The notes under the pieces are model-generated. The model was not told where the DNA came from and did not search any database. It saw nothing but the letters and a program-made list of their open reading frames with translations. Below, in pieces: positions 3,895-24,506 of a stretch of DNA of 35,721 nucleotides (position 1 is the stretch's first letter; each line of letters starts with the position of its first letter). Both the position numbers and the translations under genes were made by a program. Source of the DNA: a virus (Duplodnaviria; Heunggongvirae; Uroviricota; Caudoviricetes); IMG/VR virus record IMGVR_UViG_2713896776_000006; one strand, 5' to 3'.

Positions 3895-4166
3895 GTATTC
3901 GTATTGAAATTGGCGAACGTTATGTCGTTACCAGTGACAGCTTTCAGTTTATTCTCCACGAGAAAAAGAGAGCTGAAAGCGGTAAAAACGCCGGTCAGGA
4001 ATGGCTGGCGGTGGTTGGTTATTACCCGAAATTAAGCCAGCTTGTTTCCGGCCTGATGCATCACGATATTCTGACCGGAAGCGCAAAGTCTTTTGCTGAT
4101 TTAAACGCGCAGGTTGAGCAACTCAGCAAGCGTTGTTCAGAGGCTTTTGGCTCATATGGCCGTTAA
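3891..4166 (+). CDS. Early hypothetical protein (P2 orf83-like)
   Basis: 91-aa ORF, GGAGAA SD; overlaps start of A as in P2. Confidence 0.5.
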   Translation: MSIRIEIGERYVVTSDSFQFILHEKKRAESGKNAGQEWLAVVGYYPKLSQLVSGLMHHDILTGSAKSFADLNAQVEQLSKRCSEAFGSYGR

Positions 4167-6432
4167 AGCCTCCGGGCGTTTTGTCCCTCCGTCAGCATTT
4201 GCCGCAGGCACCGGTGAGACGTTTACCGGTGCTTATGCATGGAACGCGCCACGCGAGGCCGTCGGGCGCGAAAGACCCCTTACACGTGACGAGATGCGTC
4301 AGGTGCAAGGTGTTTTATCCACGATTAATCGCCTGCCTTACTTTTTGCGCTCGCTGTTTACTTCACGCTATGACTACATCCGGCGCAATAAAAGCCCGGT
4401 GCACGGGTTTTATTTCCTCACATCCACTTTTCAGCGCCGTTTATGGCCGCGTATTGAGCGCGTGAATCAGCGCCATGAAATGAACACCGACGCGTCGTTG
4501 CTGTTTCTGGCAGAGCGTGACCATTATGCGCGTCTGCCGGGGATGAATGACAAGGAGCTGAAAAAGTTTGCCGCCCGTATCTCATCGCAGCTTTTCATGA
4601 TGTATGAGGAACTCTGCGATGCATGGGTTGATGCACATGGCGAGAAAGAATCGCTGTTTACAGATGAGGCGCAGGCGCATCTGTATGGTCATGTTGCTGG
4701 CGCTGCACGTGCTTTCAATATTTCCCCTCTCTACTGGAAAAAATACCGTAAAGGACAGATGACCACGAGGCAGGCATATTCTGCCATTGCCCGTCTGTTT
4801 AACGATGAGTGGTGGACTCATCAGCTTAAAGGCCAGCGTATGCGCTGGCATGAGGCGTTACTGATTGCTGTCGGGGAGGTCAATAAAGACCGTTCTCCTT
4901 ATGCCAGTAAACATGCCATTCGTGATGTGCGTGCACGCCGCCAGGCAAATCTGGAATTTCTTAAATCGTGTGACCTCGAAAACAGGGAAACCGGCGAGCG
5001 CATCGACCTTATCAGTAAGGTGATGGGCAGTATTTCTAATCCTGAAATTCGCCGGATGGAGCTGATGAACACCATCGCCGGTATTGAGCGTTACGCCGCC
5101 GCAGAGGGTGATGTGGGGATGTTTATCACTCTGACCGCGCCGTCAAAGTATCACCCGACACGTCAGGTCGGAAAAGGCGAAAGTAAAACCGTCCAGCTAA
5201 ATCACGGCTGGAATGATGAGGCATTTAATCCAAAGGATGCGCAGCGTTATCTCTGCCGCATCTGGAGCCTGATGCGCACGGCATTCAAGGATAATGATTT
5301 ACAGGTCTACGGTTTGCGAGTCGTCGAGCCACACCACGACGGAACGCCGCACTGGCATATGATGCTTTTTTGTAATCCACGCCAGCGTAACCAGATTATC
5401 GAAATCATGCGTCGCTATGCGCTCAAAGAGGATGGTGACGAAAGAGGAGCCGCGCGAAACCGTTTTCAGGCAAAACACCTTAACCGGGGCGGTGCTGCGG
5501 GATATATCGCGAAATACATCTCAAAAAACATCGATGGCTATGCACTGGATGGTCAGCTCGATAATGATACCGGCAGGCCGCTGAAAGACACTGCCGCGGC
5601 TGTTACCGCATGGGCGTCAACGTGGCGCATTCCGCAATTTAAAACGGTTGGCCTGCCGACAATGGGGGCTTACCGTGAACTACGCAAATTGCCTCGCGGC
5701 GTCAGCATTGCTGATGAGTTTGACGAGCGCGTCGAGGCTGCACGCGCCGCTGCAGACAGTGGTGATTTTGCGTTGTATATCAGCGCGCAGGGCGGGGCAA
5801 ATGTCCCGCGCGATTGCCAGACTGTCAGGGTCGCCCGTAGCCCGTCGGATGACGTTAACGAGTACGAGGAAGAAGTCGAGAGAGTGGTCGGCATTTACGC
5901 GCCGCATCTCGGCGCGCGTCATATTCATATCACCAGAACGACGGACTGGCGCATTGTTCCGAAAGTGCCGGTCGTTGAGCCTTTGACTTTAAAAAGCGGC
6001 ATCGCCGCGCCTCGGAGTCCTGTCAATAACTGTGGAAAGCTCACCGGTGGTGATACTTCGTTACCGGCTCCCACACCTTCTGAACACGCCGCAGCAGTGC
6101 TTAATCTGGTTGATGACGGTGTTATCGAATGGAATGACACGGAGGTCGTGAGGGCGCTCAGGGGGGCATTAAAACACGACCTGAGAACACCAAATCGTCA
6201 GCAAAGAAACGGAAGCCCGTTAAAACTACATGAAATTGCACCATCGGCCAGACTGACCCGGTCGGAAAGAATGCAAATTACCCGTATCCGCGTTGACCTT
6301 GCTCAGAACGGTATCAGGCCGCAGCGATGGGAGCTTGAGGCGCTGGCGCGTGGCGCGACCGTAAATTATTACGGGAAATATTTCAATTATCAGGTCGCTG
6401 ATGAGTGGCCTGGATTTTTGTTACCCATTTGA
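4156..6432 (+). CDS. A: Replication initiation protein A (rolling-circle nickase)
   Basis: About 758 aa from the first in-frame ATG (a TTG at 4147 would give 761 aa, the P2 gpA length); position after orf83; large basic replication protein typical of P2 gpA. Start uncertain by about 3 codons. Confidence 0.88.
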   Translation: MAVKASGRFVPPSAFAAGTGETFTGAYAWNAPREAVGRERPLTRDEMRQVQGVLSTINRLPYFLRSLFTSRYDYIRRNKSPVHGFYFLTSTFQRRLWPRIERVNQRHEMNTDASLLFLAERDHYARLPGMNDKELKKFAARISSQLFMMYEELCDAWVDAHGEKESLFTDEAQAHLYGHVAGAARAFNISPLYWKKYRKGQMTTRQAYSAIARLFNDEWWTHQLKGQRMRWHEALLIAVGEVNKDRSPYASKHAIRDVRARRQANLEFLKSCDLENRETGERIDLISKVMGSISNPEIRRMELMNTIAGIERYAAAEGDVGMFITLTAPSKYHPTRQVGKGESKTVQLNHGWNDEAFNPKDAQRYLCRIWSLMRTAFKDNDLQVYGLRVVEPHHDGTPHWHMMLFCNPRQRNQIIEIMRRYALKEDGDERGAARNRFQAKHLNRGGAAGYIAKYISKNIDGYALDGQLDNDTGRPLKDTAAAVTAWASTWRIPQFKTVGLPTMGAYRELRKLPRGVSIADEFDERVEAARAAADSGDFALYISAQGGANVPRDCQTVRVARSPSDDVNEYEEEVERVVGIYAPHLGARHIHITRTTDWRIVPKVPVVEPLTLKSGIAAPRSPVNNCGKLTGGDTSLPAPTPSEHAAAVLNLVDDGVIEWNDTEVVRALRGALKHDLRTPNRQQRNGSPLKLHEIAPSARLTRSERMQITRIRVDLAQNGIRPQRWELEALARGATVNYYGKYFNYQVADEWPGFLLPI

Positions 6433-10007: not shown

Positions 10008-11042
10008 CTAATAATCCTCATCGCTAAGTTTGTAATTTTTAAAACATATTACTGATTCTCCTACCCAATGATTGACCTCACTGAGCCGGTTTTGGAGTGG
10101 AGTAAGTTCATTTCGCACGAATACTTTTGCCACTTTCTCAATATCACCCAGTGACCCGACATTCTCCGGCTTGCCGCCCATCAACTGAAAGGGGACGCGG
10201 TGTGCGTCCAGCAGGTCTGCGGCGCTGGCTTTTTTGATATTAAAAAAATCGTCCTTCGTTGCCACTTCACTGAGCGGGATAATTTTGATGCCGTCGGCTT
10301 TCCCCTGTGGGGCATAGAGAAACAGATTTTTAAAGTTGTTGCGGCCTTTCGACTTGACCATGTTTTCGCGAAGCATTTCGATATCGTTGCGATCCTGCAC
10401 GGCATCGGTGACGTACATGATGTATCCGGCATGAGCGCCATTTTCGTAATACTTTCGGCGGAACAGCGTGGCCGACTCATTCAGCCAGGCAGAATTAAGG
10501 GCGCTGAGATATTCCGGCAGGCCGTACAGCTCCTGATTAATATCCGGCTCCAGCAGGTGAAACACGGAGCCGGGCGTGAAGGCTGTCGGCTCGTTGAAGG
10601 ACGGCACCCACCAGTAAACATCCTCTTCCACACCACGGCGGGTATATTTTGCCGGTGAGGTTTCCAGTCTGATGACCTTACCGGTGGTGCTGTAACGCTT
10701 TTCCAGAAACGCATTACCGAACACCAGAAAATCCAGTACAAAGCGGCTGAAATCCTGCTGAGAAAGCCACGGATGCGGGATAAATGTTGAGGCCAGAATA
10801 TTACGTTTGACGTAAATCGGTGAGCTGTGATGCACGGCAGCACGCAGGCTTTTTGCCAGACCGGTAAAGCTGACCGGTGGCTCATACCATCTGCCGTTAC
10901 TGATGCACTCGACGTAATCCAGAATGTCACGGCGGTCGAGTACCGGCACCGGCTCACCAAAGGTGAATGCCTCCATTTTCGGGGCGCTGGCGGTCATTGT
11001 TTTTGCCGCAGGTCGCGGTGTTTTCCCTTTTTTCTTGCTCAT
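10008..11042 (-). CDS. Q: Portal protein
   Basis: 344-aa ORF, first gene of leftward late operon, stop/start overlap with P; same length as P2 gpQ. Confidence 0.93.
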   Translation of the reverse strand: MSKKKGKTPRPAAKTMTASAPKMEAFTFGEPVPVLDRRDILDYVECISNGRWYEPPVSFTGLAKSLRAAVHHSSPIYVKRNILASTFIPHPWLSQQDFSRFVLDFLVFGNAFLEKRYSTTGKVIRLETSPAKYTRRGVEEDVYWWVPSFNEPTAFTPGSVFHLLEPDINQELYGLPEYLSALNSAWLNESATLFRRKYYENGAHAGYIMYVTDAVQDRNDIEMLRENMVKSKGRNNFKNLFLYAPQGKADGIKIIPLSEVATKDDFFNIKKASAADLLDAHRVPFQLMGGKPENVGSLGDIEKVAKVFVRNELTPLQNRLSEVNHWVGESVICFKNYKLSDEDY

Positions 11043-20238: not shown

Positions 20239-21147
20239 ATGCCGATTATCGACCTGAACCAGCTACCCGCACCGGATGTGGTCGAGGAGCTGGACTTTGA
20301 AACCATTCTTGCCGAACGCAAGGCGACACTGATTTCCCTTTACCCGGAAGACCAGCAGGAGGCGGTCGCCCGTACCCTGACGCTGGAATCTGAGCCTCTC
20401 GTCAAACTGCTGGAGGAAAATGCTTATCGTGAGCTTATCTGGCGTCAGCGTGTGAATGAGGCTGCACGGGCGGTGATGCTGGCCTGTGCAGCCGGTAATG
20501 ACCTTGATGTGATTGGTGCCAATTACAACACCACGCGCCTGATTATCACCCCGGCAGATGATTCGACCATCCCGCCGACACCGGCAGTGATGGAATCTGA
20601 CACCGATTATCGTCTGCGTATTCAGCAGGCGTTTGAAGGTTTAAGCGTCGCCGGGTCGGTGGGTGCCTATCAGTATCATGGCCGCAGTGCCGACGGGCGT
20701 GTCGCGGATATCTCTGTCACCAGTCCGTCTCCGGCCTGCGTCACCATCTCTGTGCTGTCACGTGAGAATAACGGTGTGGCATCCGAAGACCTGCTGGCTG
20801 TGGTGCGTAACGCCCTTAATGGCGAGGATGTCAGGCCGGTGGCCGACCGCGTGACCGTGCAGTCTGCCGCCATCGTTGAATACCAGATAAACGCCACGCT
20901 TTACCTTTACCCTGGCCCCGAAAGCGAACCCATCCGCGCTGCCGCCGTGAAAAAACTGGAAGCGTATATCACGGCACAGCACCGGCTGGGGCGCGACATC
21001 CGTCTGTCTGCCATTTATGCCGCTTTGCATGTGGAAGGCGTGCAGCGTGTCGAACTGGCTGCACCACTGGCCGACATTGTGCTCAACAGTACGCAGGCGT
21101 CTTTCTGTACAGAATACCGCGTCGTGACCGGAGGCTCGGATGAGTGA
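20239..21147 (+). CDS. J: Baseplate wedge protein J
   Basis: 302-aa ORF; P2 length and order. Confidence 0.9.
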   Translation: MPIIDLNQLPAPDVVEELDFETILAERKATLISLYPEDQQEAVARTLTLESEPLVKLLEENAYRELIWRQRVNEAARAVMLACAAGNDLDVIGANYNTTRLIITPADDSTIPPTPAVMESDTDYRLRIQQAFEGLSVAGSVGAYQYHGRSADGRVADISVTSPSPACVTISVLSRENNGVASEDLLAVVRNALNGEDVRPVADRVTVQSAAIVEYQINATLYLYPGPESEPIRAAAVKKLEAYITAQHRLGRDIRLSAIYAALHVEGVQRVELAAPLADIVLNSTQASFCTEYRVVTGGSDE

Positions 21148-21670
21148 TTCGCGACTGCTGCCGACCGGCTCATCACCGCTTGAGGTTGCTGCTGCAAAAG
21201 CCTGTGCGGAAATTGAAAAAACGCCGGTCAGTATTCGTGAGCTGTGGAACCCGGACACCTGTCCGGCAAATCTGCTGCCGTGGCTGGCGTGGGCGTTTTC
21301 GGTCGACAGGTGGGATGAAAAGTGGCCGGAAGCGACAAAACGCGCCGTTATCCGCGATGCCTATTTCATCCACTGTCATAAAGGCACTATCGGTGCAATC
21401 CGGCGTGTGGTGGAGCCGCTCGGCTATCTCATCAACGTGACGGAGTGGTGGGAAAACAGTGACCCGCCCGGCACCTTCCGGCTTGATATTGGTGTACTGG
21501 AAAGCGGTATCACAGAGGCAATGTATCAGGAAATGGAACGGCTGATTGCCGATGCCAAACCCGCAAGTCGCCACCTTATCGGCCTGAACATTATCCAGGA
21601 CATTCCCGGCTATCTGTATACAGGCGGTGTGGTCTGTGATGGTGATGTTATTACTGTTTATCCCGGATAA
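21140..21670 (+). CDS. I: Baseplate protein I
   Basis: 176-aa ORF; P2 length and order. Confidence 0.9.
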   Translation: MSDSRLLPTGSSPLEVAAAKACAEIEKTPVSIRELWNPDTCPANLLPWLAWAFSVDRWDEKWPEATKRAVIRDAYFIHCHKGTIGAIRRVVEPLGYLINVTEWWENSDPPGTFRLDIGVLESGITEAMYQEMERLIADAKPASRHLIGLNIIQDIPGYLYTGGVVCDGDVITVYPG

Positions 21671-21680
21671 GTGAGAAACA

Positions 21681-23975
21681 ATGAGCACGAAATTTAAAAC
21701 CGTTATCACTACTGCCGGAGCCGCGAAGCTGGCAGCCGCCACTGTTCCCGGCGGGAAAAAAGTAAACCTGTCTGCAATGGCCGTGGGTGACGGTAATGGC
21801 AAATTGCCGGTGCCGGATGCCGGTCAGACGAAACTGGTGCATGAGGTCTGGCGTCACGCTCTGAATAAAGTCAGCGTGGATAACAAGAATAAAAACTATA
21901 TCGTGGCTGAACTGGTTGTACCGCCCGAAGTGGGCGGCTTCTGGATGCGTGAGCTTGGCCTGTACGATGATGCGGGAACGCTAATTGCCGTGGCGAACAT
22001 GGCCGAAAGTTATAAACCCGCTCTTGCCGAAGGCTCAGGGCGTTCGCAGACCTGCCGCATGGTCATCATCGTCAGCAGTGTGGCCTCAGTGGAGCTGACC
22101 ATTGACACCACAACGGTGATGGCGACGCAGGATTACGTTGATGACAAAATTGCAGAGCATGAACAGTCACGACGTCACCCGGACGCCTCGCTGACCGCAA
22201 AAGGTTTTACTCAGTTAAGCAGTGCGACCAACAGCACGTCTGAAACACTGGCCGCAACGCCGAAAGCGGTAAAGGCCGCCTATGACCTTGCTAACGGGAA
22301 ATATACTGCGCAGGATGCCACCACGGCGCGAAAAGGCCTTGTTCAGCTCAGTAGTGCGACCAACAGCACGTCTGAAACGCTCGCCGCAACGCCGAAAGCG
22401 GTAAAGGCCGCCTATGACCTTGCTAACGGGAAATACACTGCACAGGACGCCACCACCGCGCGAAAAGGTCTTGTCCAGCTCAGTAGCGCCACCAACAGCG
22501 ATTCTGAAACGCTTGCGGCAACACCAAAGGCGGTTAAGACAGCGTATGACCTTGCTAACGGGAAATACACTGCACAGGATGCCACCACGGCGCGAAAAGG
22601 TCTTGTCCAGCTCAGTAGCGCCACCAACAGTGATTCTGAAACCCTCGCGGCAACGCCAAAAGCGGTGAAGTCTGCCTATGACAATGCTGAAAAACGTCTT
22701 CAGAAAGATCAGAACGGTGCGGATATTCCGGGAAAGGATACCTTCACGAAAAATATCGGTGCCTGTCGTGCTTATAGCGGCGCTTTGAGCACTGAAGCCG
22801 GAAACTGGACAACCGCTCAGTTTATTGAATGGCTGGATTCCCGTGGTGCATTTAATCATCCGTACTGGATGTGCAAAGGCTCCTGGTCATATGCAAATAA
22901 CAAAATCATTACGGATACCGGATGTGGTGATATCCACCTGGCTGGTTGTGTCGTCGAAGTCATGGGAACAAAATCTGCAATCACTATTCGAGTGACCACG
23001 CCGACAACATCAAGCGGTGGCGGTACAACCAGCGCGCAATTCACTTACATTAATCATGGGGACGGCTACTCCCCCGGCTGGCGTCGTGACTGGAATCGTC
23101 AGGGCGACGCAATGACCGGAACGATTAATCAGGATGGCGGAAGCCAGAATGCCTATATGTCTACGGCCTTATGTTCAGGCACCAGAGGCGGCAAAAAATA
23201 TCTCAGAAAGTTTCGTGGTGGAGAAGGAGACACTATCTGGCATGAAACAGTGCAGGGCGGGGTAATTCGCTGGGCGACAGGAAACTATGACGATCAGGAA
23301 GAATTATCACTCAGCTCCGCTTATGGTCTCCGTTCTAGAGGTGAAATTACATCACTCAGTGCTAATGGTCTGCGCATTGCTTATGGCAATTATGGATTCT
23401 TTATCAGGAATGATGGCGGCAGCACATATTTAATGCTGACGGCCTCTGGCGATAAATTTGGGACATGGAACGGTTTAAGACCGCTGACTATCAATAACGC
23501 TAATGGCGGAGTGTCAATGGGGCATGGCCTGAGTGTTACTGGTGATATTGCCTCAAGTACCAAAGTACGCGCCGGTAGCGGGAAAAAGTTCACGGTCAGC
23601 AGCAGTAATACATCCACGAAGGAAGCCGCATTCAATTTGTGGGGAAACTCAAGTCGTCCGGTGGTGGCTGAATTAGGTGATGATGCAGGCTGGCATTTTT
23701 ACAGTCAGAGAAATACAGATAACAGCATCACTTTTGCTGTTAACGGTCAGGTATCACCATCTAACTATAGTAATTTTGATTCCCGTTATGTACGCGATAT
23801 CCGGCTTGGGACTCGAGTTGTCCAGACCATGCAGAAAGGGGTGATGTATGAGAAAGCAGGGCACGTAATTACCGGGCTTGGTATTGTCGGTGAAGTCGAT
23901 GGTGATGACCCCGCAGTATTCAGACCAATACAAAAATACATCAATGGCACATGGTATAACGTCGCACAGGTGTAA
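21681..23975 (+). CDS. H: Tail fibre protein (longer than P2 gpH; contains internal tandem repeats)
   Basis: 764-aa ORF between I and G; conserved N-terminus, repeated SSATNS..TLAATPKAVK..YDLANGKY motif, divergent C-terminal (receptor-binding) half. Confidence 0.9.
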   Translation: MSTKFKTVITTAGAAKLAAATVPGGKKVNLSAMAVGDGNGKLPVPDAGQTKLVHEVWRHALNKVSVDNKNKNYIVAELVVPPEVGGFWMRELGLYDDAGTLIAVANMAESYKPALAEGSGRSQTCRMVIIVSSVASVELTIDTTTVMATQDYVDDKIAEHEQSRRHPDASLTAKGFTQLSSATNSTSETLAATPKAVKAAYDLANGKYTAQDATTARKGLVQLSSATNSTSETLAATPKAVKAAYDLANGKYTAQDATTARKGLVQLSSATNSDSETLAATPKAVKTAYDLANGKYTAQDATTARKGLVQLSSATNSDSETLAATPKAVKSAYDNAEKRLQKDQNGADIPGKDTFTKNIGACRAYSGALSTEAGNWTTAQFIEWLDSRGAFNHPYWMCKGSWSYANNKIITDTGCGDIHLAGCVVEVMGTKSAITIRVTTPTTSSGGGTTSAQFTYINHGDGYSPGWRRDWNRQGDAMTGTINQDGGSQNAYMSTALCSGTRGGKKYLRKFRGGEGDTIWHETVQGGVIRWATGNYDDQEELSLSSAYGLRSRGEITSLSANGLRIAYGNYGFFIRNDGGSTYLMLTASGDKFGTWNGLRPLTINNANGGVSMGHGLSVTGDIASSTKVRAGSGKKFTVSSSNTSTKEAAFNLWGNSSRPVVAELGDDAGWHFYSQRNTDNSITFAVNGQVSPSNYSNFDSRYVRDIRLGTRVVQTMQKGVMYEKAGHVITGLGIVGEVDGDDPAVFRPIQKYINGTWYNVAQV
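22200..22690 (+). repeat. About 3.7 tandem copies of a 132-nt (44-aa) repeat inside H
   Basis: Repeat unit KG(F/L)(T/V)QLSSATNS(T/D)SETLAATPKAVKAAYDLANGKYTAQDATTAR seen three times in full plus a partial fourth copy; period measured as 132 nt (22203 to 22335). Confidence 0.85.
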
Positions 23976-23978
23976 TTT

Positions 23979-24506
23979 ATGCAACATTTAAAAAATATTA
24001 CTGCGGGTAATCCAAAAACTGTTGCCCAATATCAACTGACAAAAAATTTTGATGTTATCTGGTTATGGTCCGAAGAGGGAAAAAACTGGTATGAGGAAGT
24101 AAGTAATTTTCAGGAGGACACGATAAAGATTGTTTACGACGAGAATAATATAATTGTCGGCATCACCCGAGATGCTTCAACGCTTAACCCTGAAGGTTTT
24201 AGCGTTGTTGAGGTTCCTGATATTACTGCCAACCGACGTGCTGATGACTCAGGTAAATGGATGTTTAAGGATGGTGCCGTGATTAAGCGGATTTATACGG
24301 CAGACGAACAGCAGCAACTGGCAGAATCACAAAAGGCAACTTTGCTTTCCGAAGCCGAATCCGTGATTTTGCCGCTGGAGCGCGCTGTCAGGCTGAATAT
24401 GGCAACAGATGAGGAGCGTAGCCGACTGGATGCATGGGAGCGTTACAGCGTTCTGGTCAGTCGTGTGGATCCTGCAAATCCTGAATGGCCGGAAATGCCG
24501 CAATAA
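23979..24506 (+). CDS. G: Tail fibre assembly chaperone
   Basis: 175-aa ORF immediately after H; same length as P2 gpG. Confidence 0.9.

Follow-up and report, generated by a model that had tools for sequence, protein, structure and literature searches.

Why does the tail-fibre gene H in the viral DNA analysed here (IMG/VR record IMGVR_UViG_2713896776_000006, a stretch of 35,721 nucleotides, hereinafter the window) contain a 132-nt segment in several tandem copies, and is this array a fresh expansion, a hypervariable locus, an assembly error, or a regular part of the fibre? The answer that we favour, with a probability of roughly 0.85, is that the array consists of four tandem Phage_fiber_2 modules in the proximal shaft of the trimeric gpH of a P2-like (Peduovirus) prophage, that it changes by gain and loss of whole units, and that the units would function as shaft segments and as a joint for module exchange.

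Tandem array of 44-aa units in gene H of a P2-like prophage

The first-pass annotation of this DNA, made from the sequence alone, reported three full copies and a partial fourth of a 132-nt (44-aa) unit within H, and this description was borne out, with correct coordinates and counts. Tandem Repeats Finder detected a single strong array in the H region (22227-22682; period 132, 3.5 copies, 89% matches, no indels, score 688), and a second repeat search recovered three in-register copies spaced by 132 nt. A self dot-plot of H, performed as a lag scan, likewise revealed tandem periodicity, with best identities in a 264-nt window of 0.909, 0.758, and 0.496 at lags 132, 264, and 396, respectively, against at most 0.386 at every other lag from 3 to 699 (mean 0.31, standard deviation 0.02). 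The 132-nt periodicity of gene H is far above chance, and the lag scan detected none elsewhere in the 35.7-kb window. Altogether, the array (22200-22688) encompasses three full 44-aa units and a fourth, 31-aa unit that runs on into the conserved junction ...AYDNAEKRLQKDQNGADIPGKDTFTKNIG (Table 1).

The element that carries this gene is a P2-like prophage of Escherichia coli that adjoins yegQ and retains the complete P2 gene order, from the integrase to ogr; in the accessory hotspot that separates genes A and Q, the window differs from E. coli UTAK-3. The conserved tail-fibre motif that had been noticed at the core of each unit is that of the Pfam family PF03406 (Phage_fiber_2, “Phage tail fibre repeat”), which matches H in four stretches (257 bits against a cut-off of 22; total E=4.6e-78). 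These stretches span almost all of the 42 positions in the model, the best one extending over positions 1-41. The protein belongs to this family both by the score of the family HMM, which exceeds the gathering score, and by the presence of tandem 44-aa units in a tail-fibre protein; it belongs to the P2-type (Peduovirus) gpH by its PF12571 N-terminus and by the position of the gene between I and G in a P2-like prophage. An identical E. coli gene is annotated ‘tail fiber protein’. Given that H, with its PF03406 array, is flanked by the genes for the Tail_P2_I and Caudo_TAP proteins, the repeat represents an already named and curated family that is found here in its usual context.

Table 1. Coordinates of gene H, its domains and repeat units, the adjacent genes, and the antisense ORFs (positions in the window)
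Feature	Coordinates	Strand	Evidence and remarks
Gene I, baseplate protein holding the fibre	21140..21670	+	Tail_P2_I PF09684, E=6e-56
Gene H, tail-fibre protein, 764 aa	21681..23975	+	Pfam PF12571, PF03406 x4, PF21446
N-terminal baseplate-adaptor domain, aa 1-151	21681..22133	+	Phage_tail_fib PF12571, E=3.1e-58
Repeat unit 1	22200..22331	+	aa 174-217
53-nt exact stretch, unit 1	22251..22303	+	holds crossover interval of the 132-nt difference from STW0522-31
Repeat unit 2	22332..22463	+	aa 218-261
Repeat unit 3	22464..22595	+	aa 262-305
Repeat unit 4, partial	22596..22688	+	aa 306-336; motif kept for 31 aa
First distal module, aa 337-490, Mu S' / P1 Sv' / lambdoid side-tail-fibre type	22689..23150	+	PDB 8ju3
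T4 gp34 knob-like trimerisation domain, aa 541-604	23301..23492	+	Gp34_trimer PF21446, E=9.2e-26; PDB 4uxe, 5nxf, 5yvq
Distal tip, P2/Mu-type, aa 626-764	23556..23972	+	P2 gpH; Mu S C-terminus in 5yvq
Gene G, tail-fibre assembly chaperone	23979..24506	+	Caudo_TAP PF02413, E=1.3e-34; P2 G position
Antisense ORF, 214 aa, ATG start, spurious	22215..22859	-	repeat read backwards
Antisense ORF, 71 aa, spurious	22412..22627	-	wholly inside the repeat, another antisense frame

Modular relationships of gpH with the fibres of P2, Mu, and Yersinia phages

The gpH of P2 (NP_046775) is encoded in the same place of the operon (V W J I H G) and, as the first-pass annotation had it, consists of 669 aa compared with 764 aa here. 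The identity between the two proteins varies from module to module. The N-terminal adaptor (aa 1-151) is 87% identical, and the linker together with unit 1 (aa 152-217) is 100% identical as protein; the middle part (aa 337-625) consists of unrelated modules, with 18-23% identity (23% in the first distal module, aa 337-490); and the distal tip (aa 626-764) is 76% identical over 139 aligned residues. At the position where H has four PF03406 units, P2 gpH has two, one full and one partial. The P2 protein forms a homotrimeric fibre that is attached to gpI through a gpI-gpH contact and binds the lipopolysaccharide (LPS) core; the fibre is described as ~54 nm long in a 2026 study by cryo-EM and AF3, the model from which comprises an adaptor, “two repeat domains”, an extension and an anchor, a knob similar to gp34, and a tip resembling that of Mu (bioRxiv 10.64898/2026.09.14.750843). 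In another P2-like coliphage, P88, the determinants of host range have been mapped to a pair of hypervariable regions within the C-terminal portion of the fibre (PMC5285337). The claim that the C-terminal half of H diverges from that of P2 therefore needs to be divided: it holds for aa 337-625 but not for the tip. With a tip so similar to that of P2, the further inference of a different receptor specificity, which had been drawn from this divergence, is weak and cannot be considered established.

Downstream of the repeats, H is a mosaic in which a module similar to Mu S' and P1 Sv' is combined with a domain that resembles the T4 gp34 knob. Residues 333-487 match the variable part of Mu S' (PDB 8ju3, domain E=2.4e-69; residues 176-332 of the chain). 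P1 Sv' and the lambdoid side tail fibres show 80-85% identity to the first 138-146 aa of the distal half, which starts at aa 337. Further on, the T4 gp34 knob and Mu S (4uxe, 5nxf, 5yvq) have their counterpart in aa 548-624, with the region of the knob and tip corresponding to residues 264-503 of Mu S. In Mu S and S' (5yvq, 8ju3) as well as P1 S and Sv', one repeat copy is followed by the same ...NGADIP.K..F..N.G junction, and unit 4 of H aligns to the single repeat of Mu S (residues 111-154). The fibres of Mu and P1 have another N-terminus, and their distal parts are switched by site-specific inversion, whereas in H, both kinds of Mu-type distal modules are present in series within one gene.

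Among isolated phages, Yersinia phage vB_YpM_46 (YP_010107789), of which only passing mentions were found in the literature, encodes a fibre of the same architecture (764 aa, 2295 nt, four units), with 94.9% DNA identity over the whole gene and 99.8% protein identity in the distal half; the two genes differ by point differences only, mainly in the N-terminal domain. The fibre of Yersinia phage P37 (720 aa) is encoded by the same gene with three units, one fewer than here. More broadly, the distal half of H is 96-99.8% identical, at the protein level, to the fibres of vB_YpM_46, VB-YPM-4, P37, vB_YpM_115, and vB_YpM_117. All these are P2-like phages isolated on Yersinia pestis EV76 (vB_YpM_46 and P37 as phages plated on this strain), unlike the window, which represents a prophage of E. 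coli.

Structural information on the repeat itself is scarce. A profile of the 44-aa unit, when searched against PDB sequences, retrieved the Mu S and S/S' chains only (5yvq/9ki1, 8ju3), all other hits having E>=0.79; in the Mu virion paper, only the N-terminus of gp49 was built, and the C-terminal crystal structure was fitted. The PF03406 family was listed in 2021 among the repeat families without a known structure (PMC8078820), the sources searched yielded no experimental structure of this repeat, and the papers found on the family contained neither a structure nor a functional test of it. An AlphaFold2 model of aa 151-360, computed from a 23-sequence alignment for a monomer of this trimeric fibre segment, was all helical and unusable, with a mean pLDDT of 40 and pTM of 0.22.

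Repeat units are diverged at the DNA level

The copies had been described as near-identical at the nucleotide level, which is wrong: near-identity is found only in the protein. The peptides of the full units have 41-44 of the 44 residues in common (unit 2 differs from unit 1 in two of the 44), whereas the DNA identity is 90% between units 1 and 2, 86% between units 2 and 3, and 82% between units 1 and 3. Between the full units, pS amounts to 0.27-0.50 compared with pN of 0.035-0.076, that is, pN/pS of about 0.1-0.15. Such strong purifying selection, which affects every unit, implies that each copy is a functional piece of the protein. Units 1 and 2 contain the motif ‘NSTSE’, and units 3 and 4, ‘NSDSE’. 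Neighbouring units have exact runs of 26-53 nt in common; the longest run common to two units is the 53-nt identity between 22251-22303 in unit 1 and 22383-22435 in unit 2.

Comparison with other phages bears on the age of the array. Over the first 81 nt, unit 1 shows 99% identity to its P2 counterpart, as against only 89% to unit 2 of the same gene; for unit 4, the identity is 95% to the corresponding unit of vB_YpM_46, as against 89% to the neighbouring unit 3. Because the orthologous units are closer to each other than the paralogous ones, the duplications predate the divergence of these phages. Thus, the units are old paralogues evolving under purifying selection, not the products of a recent event, as the term ‘expansion’ in the first-pass annotation would suggest; a fresh expansion was considered and rejected given the high pS between the units and the closer similarity of the orthologues.

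Copy number changes by whole units

The expectation that the number of copies changes within the array was upheld by two pairs of near-identical E. coli prophage alleles that differ by exactly 132 nt. Apart from one SNP, at 23293, gene H of strain STW0522-31 differs from that in the window solely in being exactly 132 nt shorter. The junction may fall at any position in 22251-22303, and the surviving unit is a hybrid that consists of the 5' part of unit 1 and the 3' part of unit 2. A single in-register deletion would explain the origin of the STW0522-31 allele from the window allele, and in the opposite direction, additional steps would be required, given that unit 1 of the window differs from the hybrid in its 3' part. 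In the second pair, gene H of YZ22PE244 is that of E302 minus exactly 132 nt, with 0 mismatches. The junction in this case maps to nt 820-833 of the gene, in units 3/4, and involves 13 nt of exact identity, such that a RecA-dependent crossover is not the sole possible route. The two pairs represent independent one-unit changes at different units. Similarly, P37, with its three units, differs from the four-unit relatives by one unit in the region of units 2-4.

Copy number also varies among the related prophages and phages, with two units in P2, three in P37, four in the window, and 0-6 among 228 H proteins with this N-terminus (120 database hits, 104 related loci from collections of viral and species-representative genomes, and four references), a survey that gives the range rather than frequencies because it is biased, being composed of top-scoring hits from 90%-identity clusters, many of them partial. 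The spacing of the units is 44 aa in the homologues with at least two copies, the exception being one 43-aa spacing (in L062). Among the 74 proteins in this biased set that have the same downstream module, 1 has two copies, 33 have three, 36 have four, and 4 have six.

That H has four units and P2 has two is a real difference, but one of an ordinary kind that sequenced phages already display. Public records contain the family, its tandem arrangement, the mosaicism of fibre genes, and the exact 764-aa protein; the two allele pairs that differ by exactly one unit illustrate such changes neatly but are not a discovery. The consequences of the array beyond annotation are small; it provides a documented example of whole-unit steps combined with module exchange at a conserved joint.

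Proposed role of the array and alternative explanations

Under the explanation that we favour, units would be gained and lost by unequal homologous recombination or by replication slippage between neighbouring units. Each unit would add one segment to the trimeric fibre shaft, and extra units would plausibly lengthen it, in keeping with the P2 model, in which the two repeat domains are located between the adaptor and the distal domains; the number of copies would then set the distance from the baseplate to the tip, with tip binding unaltered. The repeat together with the ...NGADIP.K..F..N.G junction would act as a homologous joint for swapping distal modules among Mu S/S', P1 Sv', lambdoid stf, and P2. 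In the engineering of P2 or R-pyocin fibre chimeras, the repeat and junction could serve as a natural fusion point, with the number of units as a length variable.

The role of the joint could be taken further, to the proposition that the repeats are mainly a recombination linker for the exchange of receptor-binding modules and that copy number is a neutral by-product without an effect on fibre function. At least six different distal modules are found behind the same repeat and NGADIP junction, the terminal unit with the junction resembles Mu S, in which the variable part comes after a single repeat, and the split between the NSTSE and NSDSE units along with the 99% identity of unit 1 to that of P2 is compatible with an array assembled by recombination; the strong purifying selection on every unit argues against this proposition, which we regard as possible but rather doubtful. 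It is compatible with the favoured explanation and does not exclude it. In an opposite extension, the number of units would be an adaptive length dial, with in-register gain and loss, by recombination via the 26-53 nt runs, yielding fibres of unequal reach and with selection of particular copy numbers by the depth at which the LPS-core receptor lies under the O-antigen or capsule of the local hosts; this appears unlikely. Still less credible is a contingency-type hypervariable locus, in which copy number would change at high frequency within a population to yield mixed fibre lengths, a form of bet-hedging. The existence of two independent exact one-unit differences between alleles that are otherwise identical or nearly so (the window and STW0522-31, with one SNP; E302 and YZ22PE244), and the range of 2-6 copies with the same distal module, are what such a locus would produce, but the units of known contingency loci are near-perfect whereas those of H are only 82-90% identical, with exact runs of no more than 53 nt. 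Furthermore, many unrelated strains stably retain the four-unit allele, with 94-100% identity, and the orthologous units are conserved between phages, indicating that turnover is slow relative to point divergence. Variable in-frame tandem copies in a tail-fibre gene have been described in Enterococcus phage EfV12-phi1, where they are linked to the response to host resistance (PMC6365445); those duplications are 1.8 kb long and arose within days in the laboratory, whereas the units in the window are 132 nt long, old, and diverged.

The two remaining alternatives concern the data and the opposite strand. The concern, raised in the first-pass annotation, that the copy number is an artefact of assembly, the array having been expanded or collapsed, is almost completely refuted by independent complete genomes. 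The same 2295-nt gene is found, with 100% identity, in E. coli UTAK-3 and LR-64-2 and, with 99.8% identity, in PCP06022; dozens of other complete genomes carry a 2295-nt allele at 94-95% identity; and the isolated phage vB_YpM_46 has a gene of equal length. Many of the homologues in the databases are indeed ‘partial’ proteins that stop at contig ends inside H, indicating that short-read assemblies often break in this gene, and the repeat may account for many such records. In the gene analysed here, the units differ at 10-18% of the positions, and the longest exact run is 53 nt, so that ordinary reads place each unit uniquely; a true copy number different from four is, accordingly, highly improbable.

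Finally, the repeat accounts for the spurious antisense ORFs in the annotation, both of which exist as reported and were rightly called spurious. The alternative of a real antisense gene that constrains the repeat concerns the 214-aa ORF, which has an ATG start and a frame that is open also in vB_YpM_46. This frame, however, is broken in P37 and P2, and its product, a reverse reading of the repeat, is of low complexity and rich in Arg, Gly, and Cys. Moreover, the synonymous sites of H diverge freely between the units (pS up to 0.50), which argues against a second coding constraint. We consider the chance that this ORF is a gene to be negligible. As for the 71-aa ORF, the open stretch in the corresponding frame of vB_YpM_46 has other limits.

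Gene H architecture in viral contigs and sequence collections

The sample of viral contigs (L035-L114) comprised 80 contigs, 72 of them with a complete H gene. In 63 of the 72, H encodes a single repeat unit within a much longer protein (840-928 aa), and the junction, that is, the conserved stretch right after the repeat array, is NGADIQDKSAFLDNVGVTSL. Given this predominance, and given that most of the one-unit proteins are 94-96% identical to the N-terminal domain of the window's H, a single unit combined with a long distal part is the commonest architecture in this collection for those phages whose adaptor domain is the most similar.

In the protein collection, most of the top-scoring H homologs among the matches listed (P0001-P0120) are labeled partial and end at contig ends within H, and fragments of 404 aa make up one cluster with 358 members. 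Evidently, short-read assemblies are often broken inside H. The breaks could be caused either by the repeats or by the presence of several P2-like prophages in one genome, the latter being consistent with the median of two places matching H per genome.

The enterobacterial P2-type N-terminus of H is also present in records titled Vagococcus sp. WN89Y (L016; labeled as a Firmicute) and Chryseobacterium sp. 18061 (L021; labeled as a Bacteroidete), at 75-79% amino acid identity and in contigs of 180-420 kb. Both assemblies are probably contaminated or mislabeled.

Accessory hotspots

The interval between genes A and Q, which in P2 is the old/tin accessory hotspot, holds a single ORF in the window (see table). 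This 835-aa product contains a SIR2_2 domain (PF13289; Pfam, E=1.1e-13) followed by weak STAND-NTPase matches under the Pfam cut-off, and the match to the PADLOC ThsA-type SIR2 models is confined to its N-terminal part. The ORF reads as a candidate SIR2-STAND (Avs-like) single-gene defense system. In the prophage of Escherichia coli UTAK-3, with the same H as the window, a SacI-family restriction-modification system occupies this position instead.

Accessory ORFs of the window and their locations
ORF	Coordinates	Strand	Location
835 aa	7467..9974	+	A-Q hotspot, sole ORF; between gene A (replication; 4114..6432) and gene Q (portal; 10008..11042)
154 aa	24741..25205	+	Z/fun hotspot, between fiber-assembly gene G and sheath gene FI
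241 aa	25384..26109	-	Z/fun hotspot, between G and FI
269 aa	26293..27102	-	Z/fun hotspot, between G and FI

At the G-FI position, where the window has three ORFs, P2 carries fun(Z), whereas the Yersinia phage vB_YpM_46 has a different hypothetical gene and its fellow Yersinia phage P37 has no gene there. The GC content of the three ORFs is 0.37-0.47, compared to 0.55-0.60 in the adjoining tail genes, and none of the three has a Pfam or PADLOC match; they may represent uncharacterized defense or conversion cargo. The 241-aa ORF of the window was compared with locus L005, 23705-24429. Both the window and E. coli STW0522-31 have it in intact form. In UTAK-3, it is annotated as two separate genes, of 432 and 255 nt, which suggests that the ORF is disrupted there.
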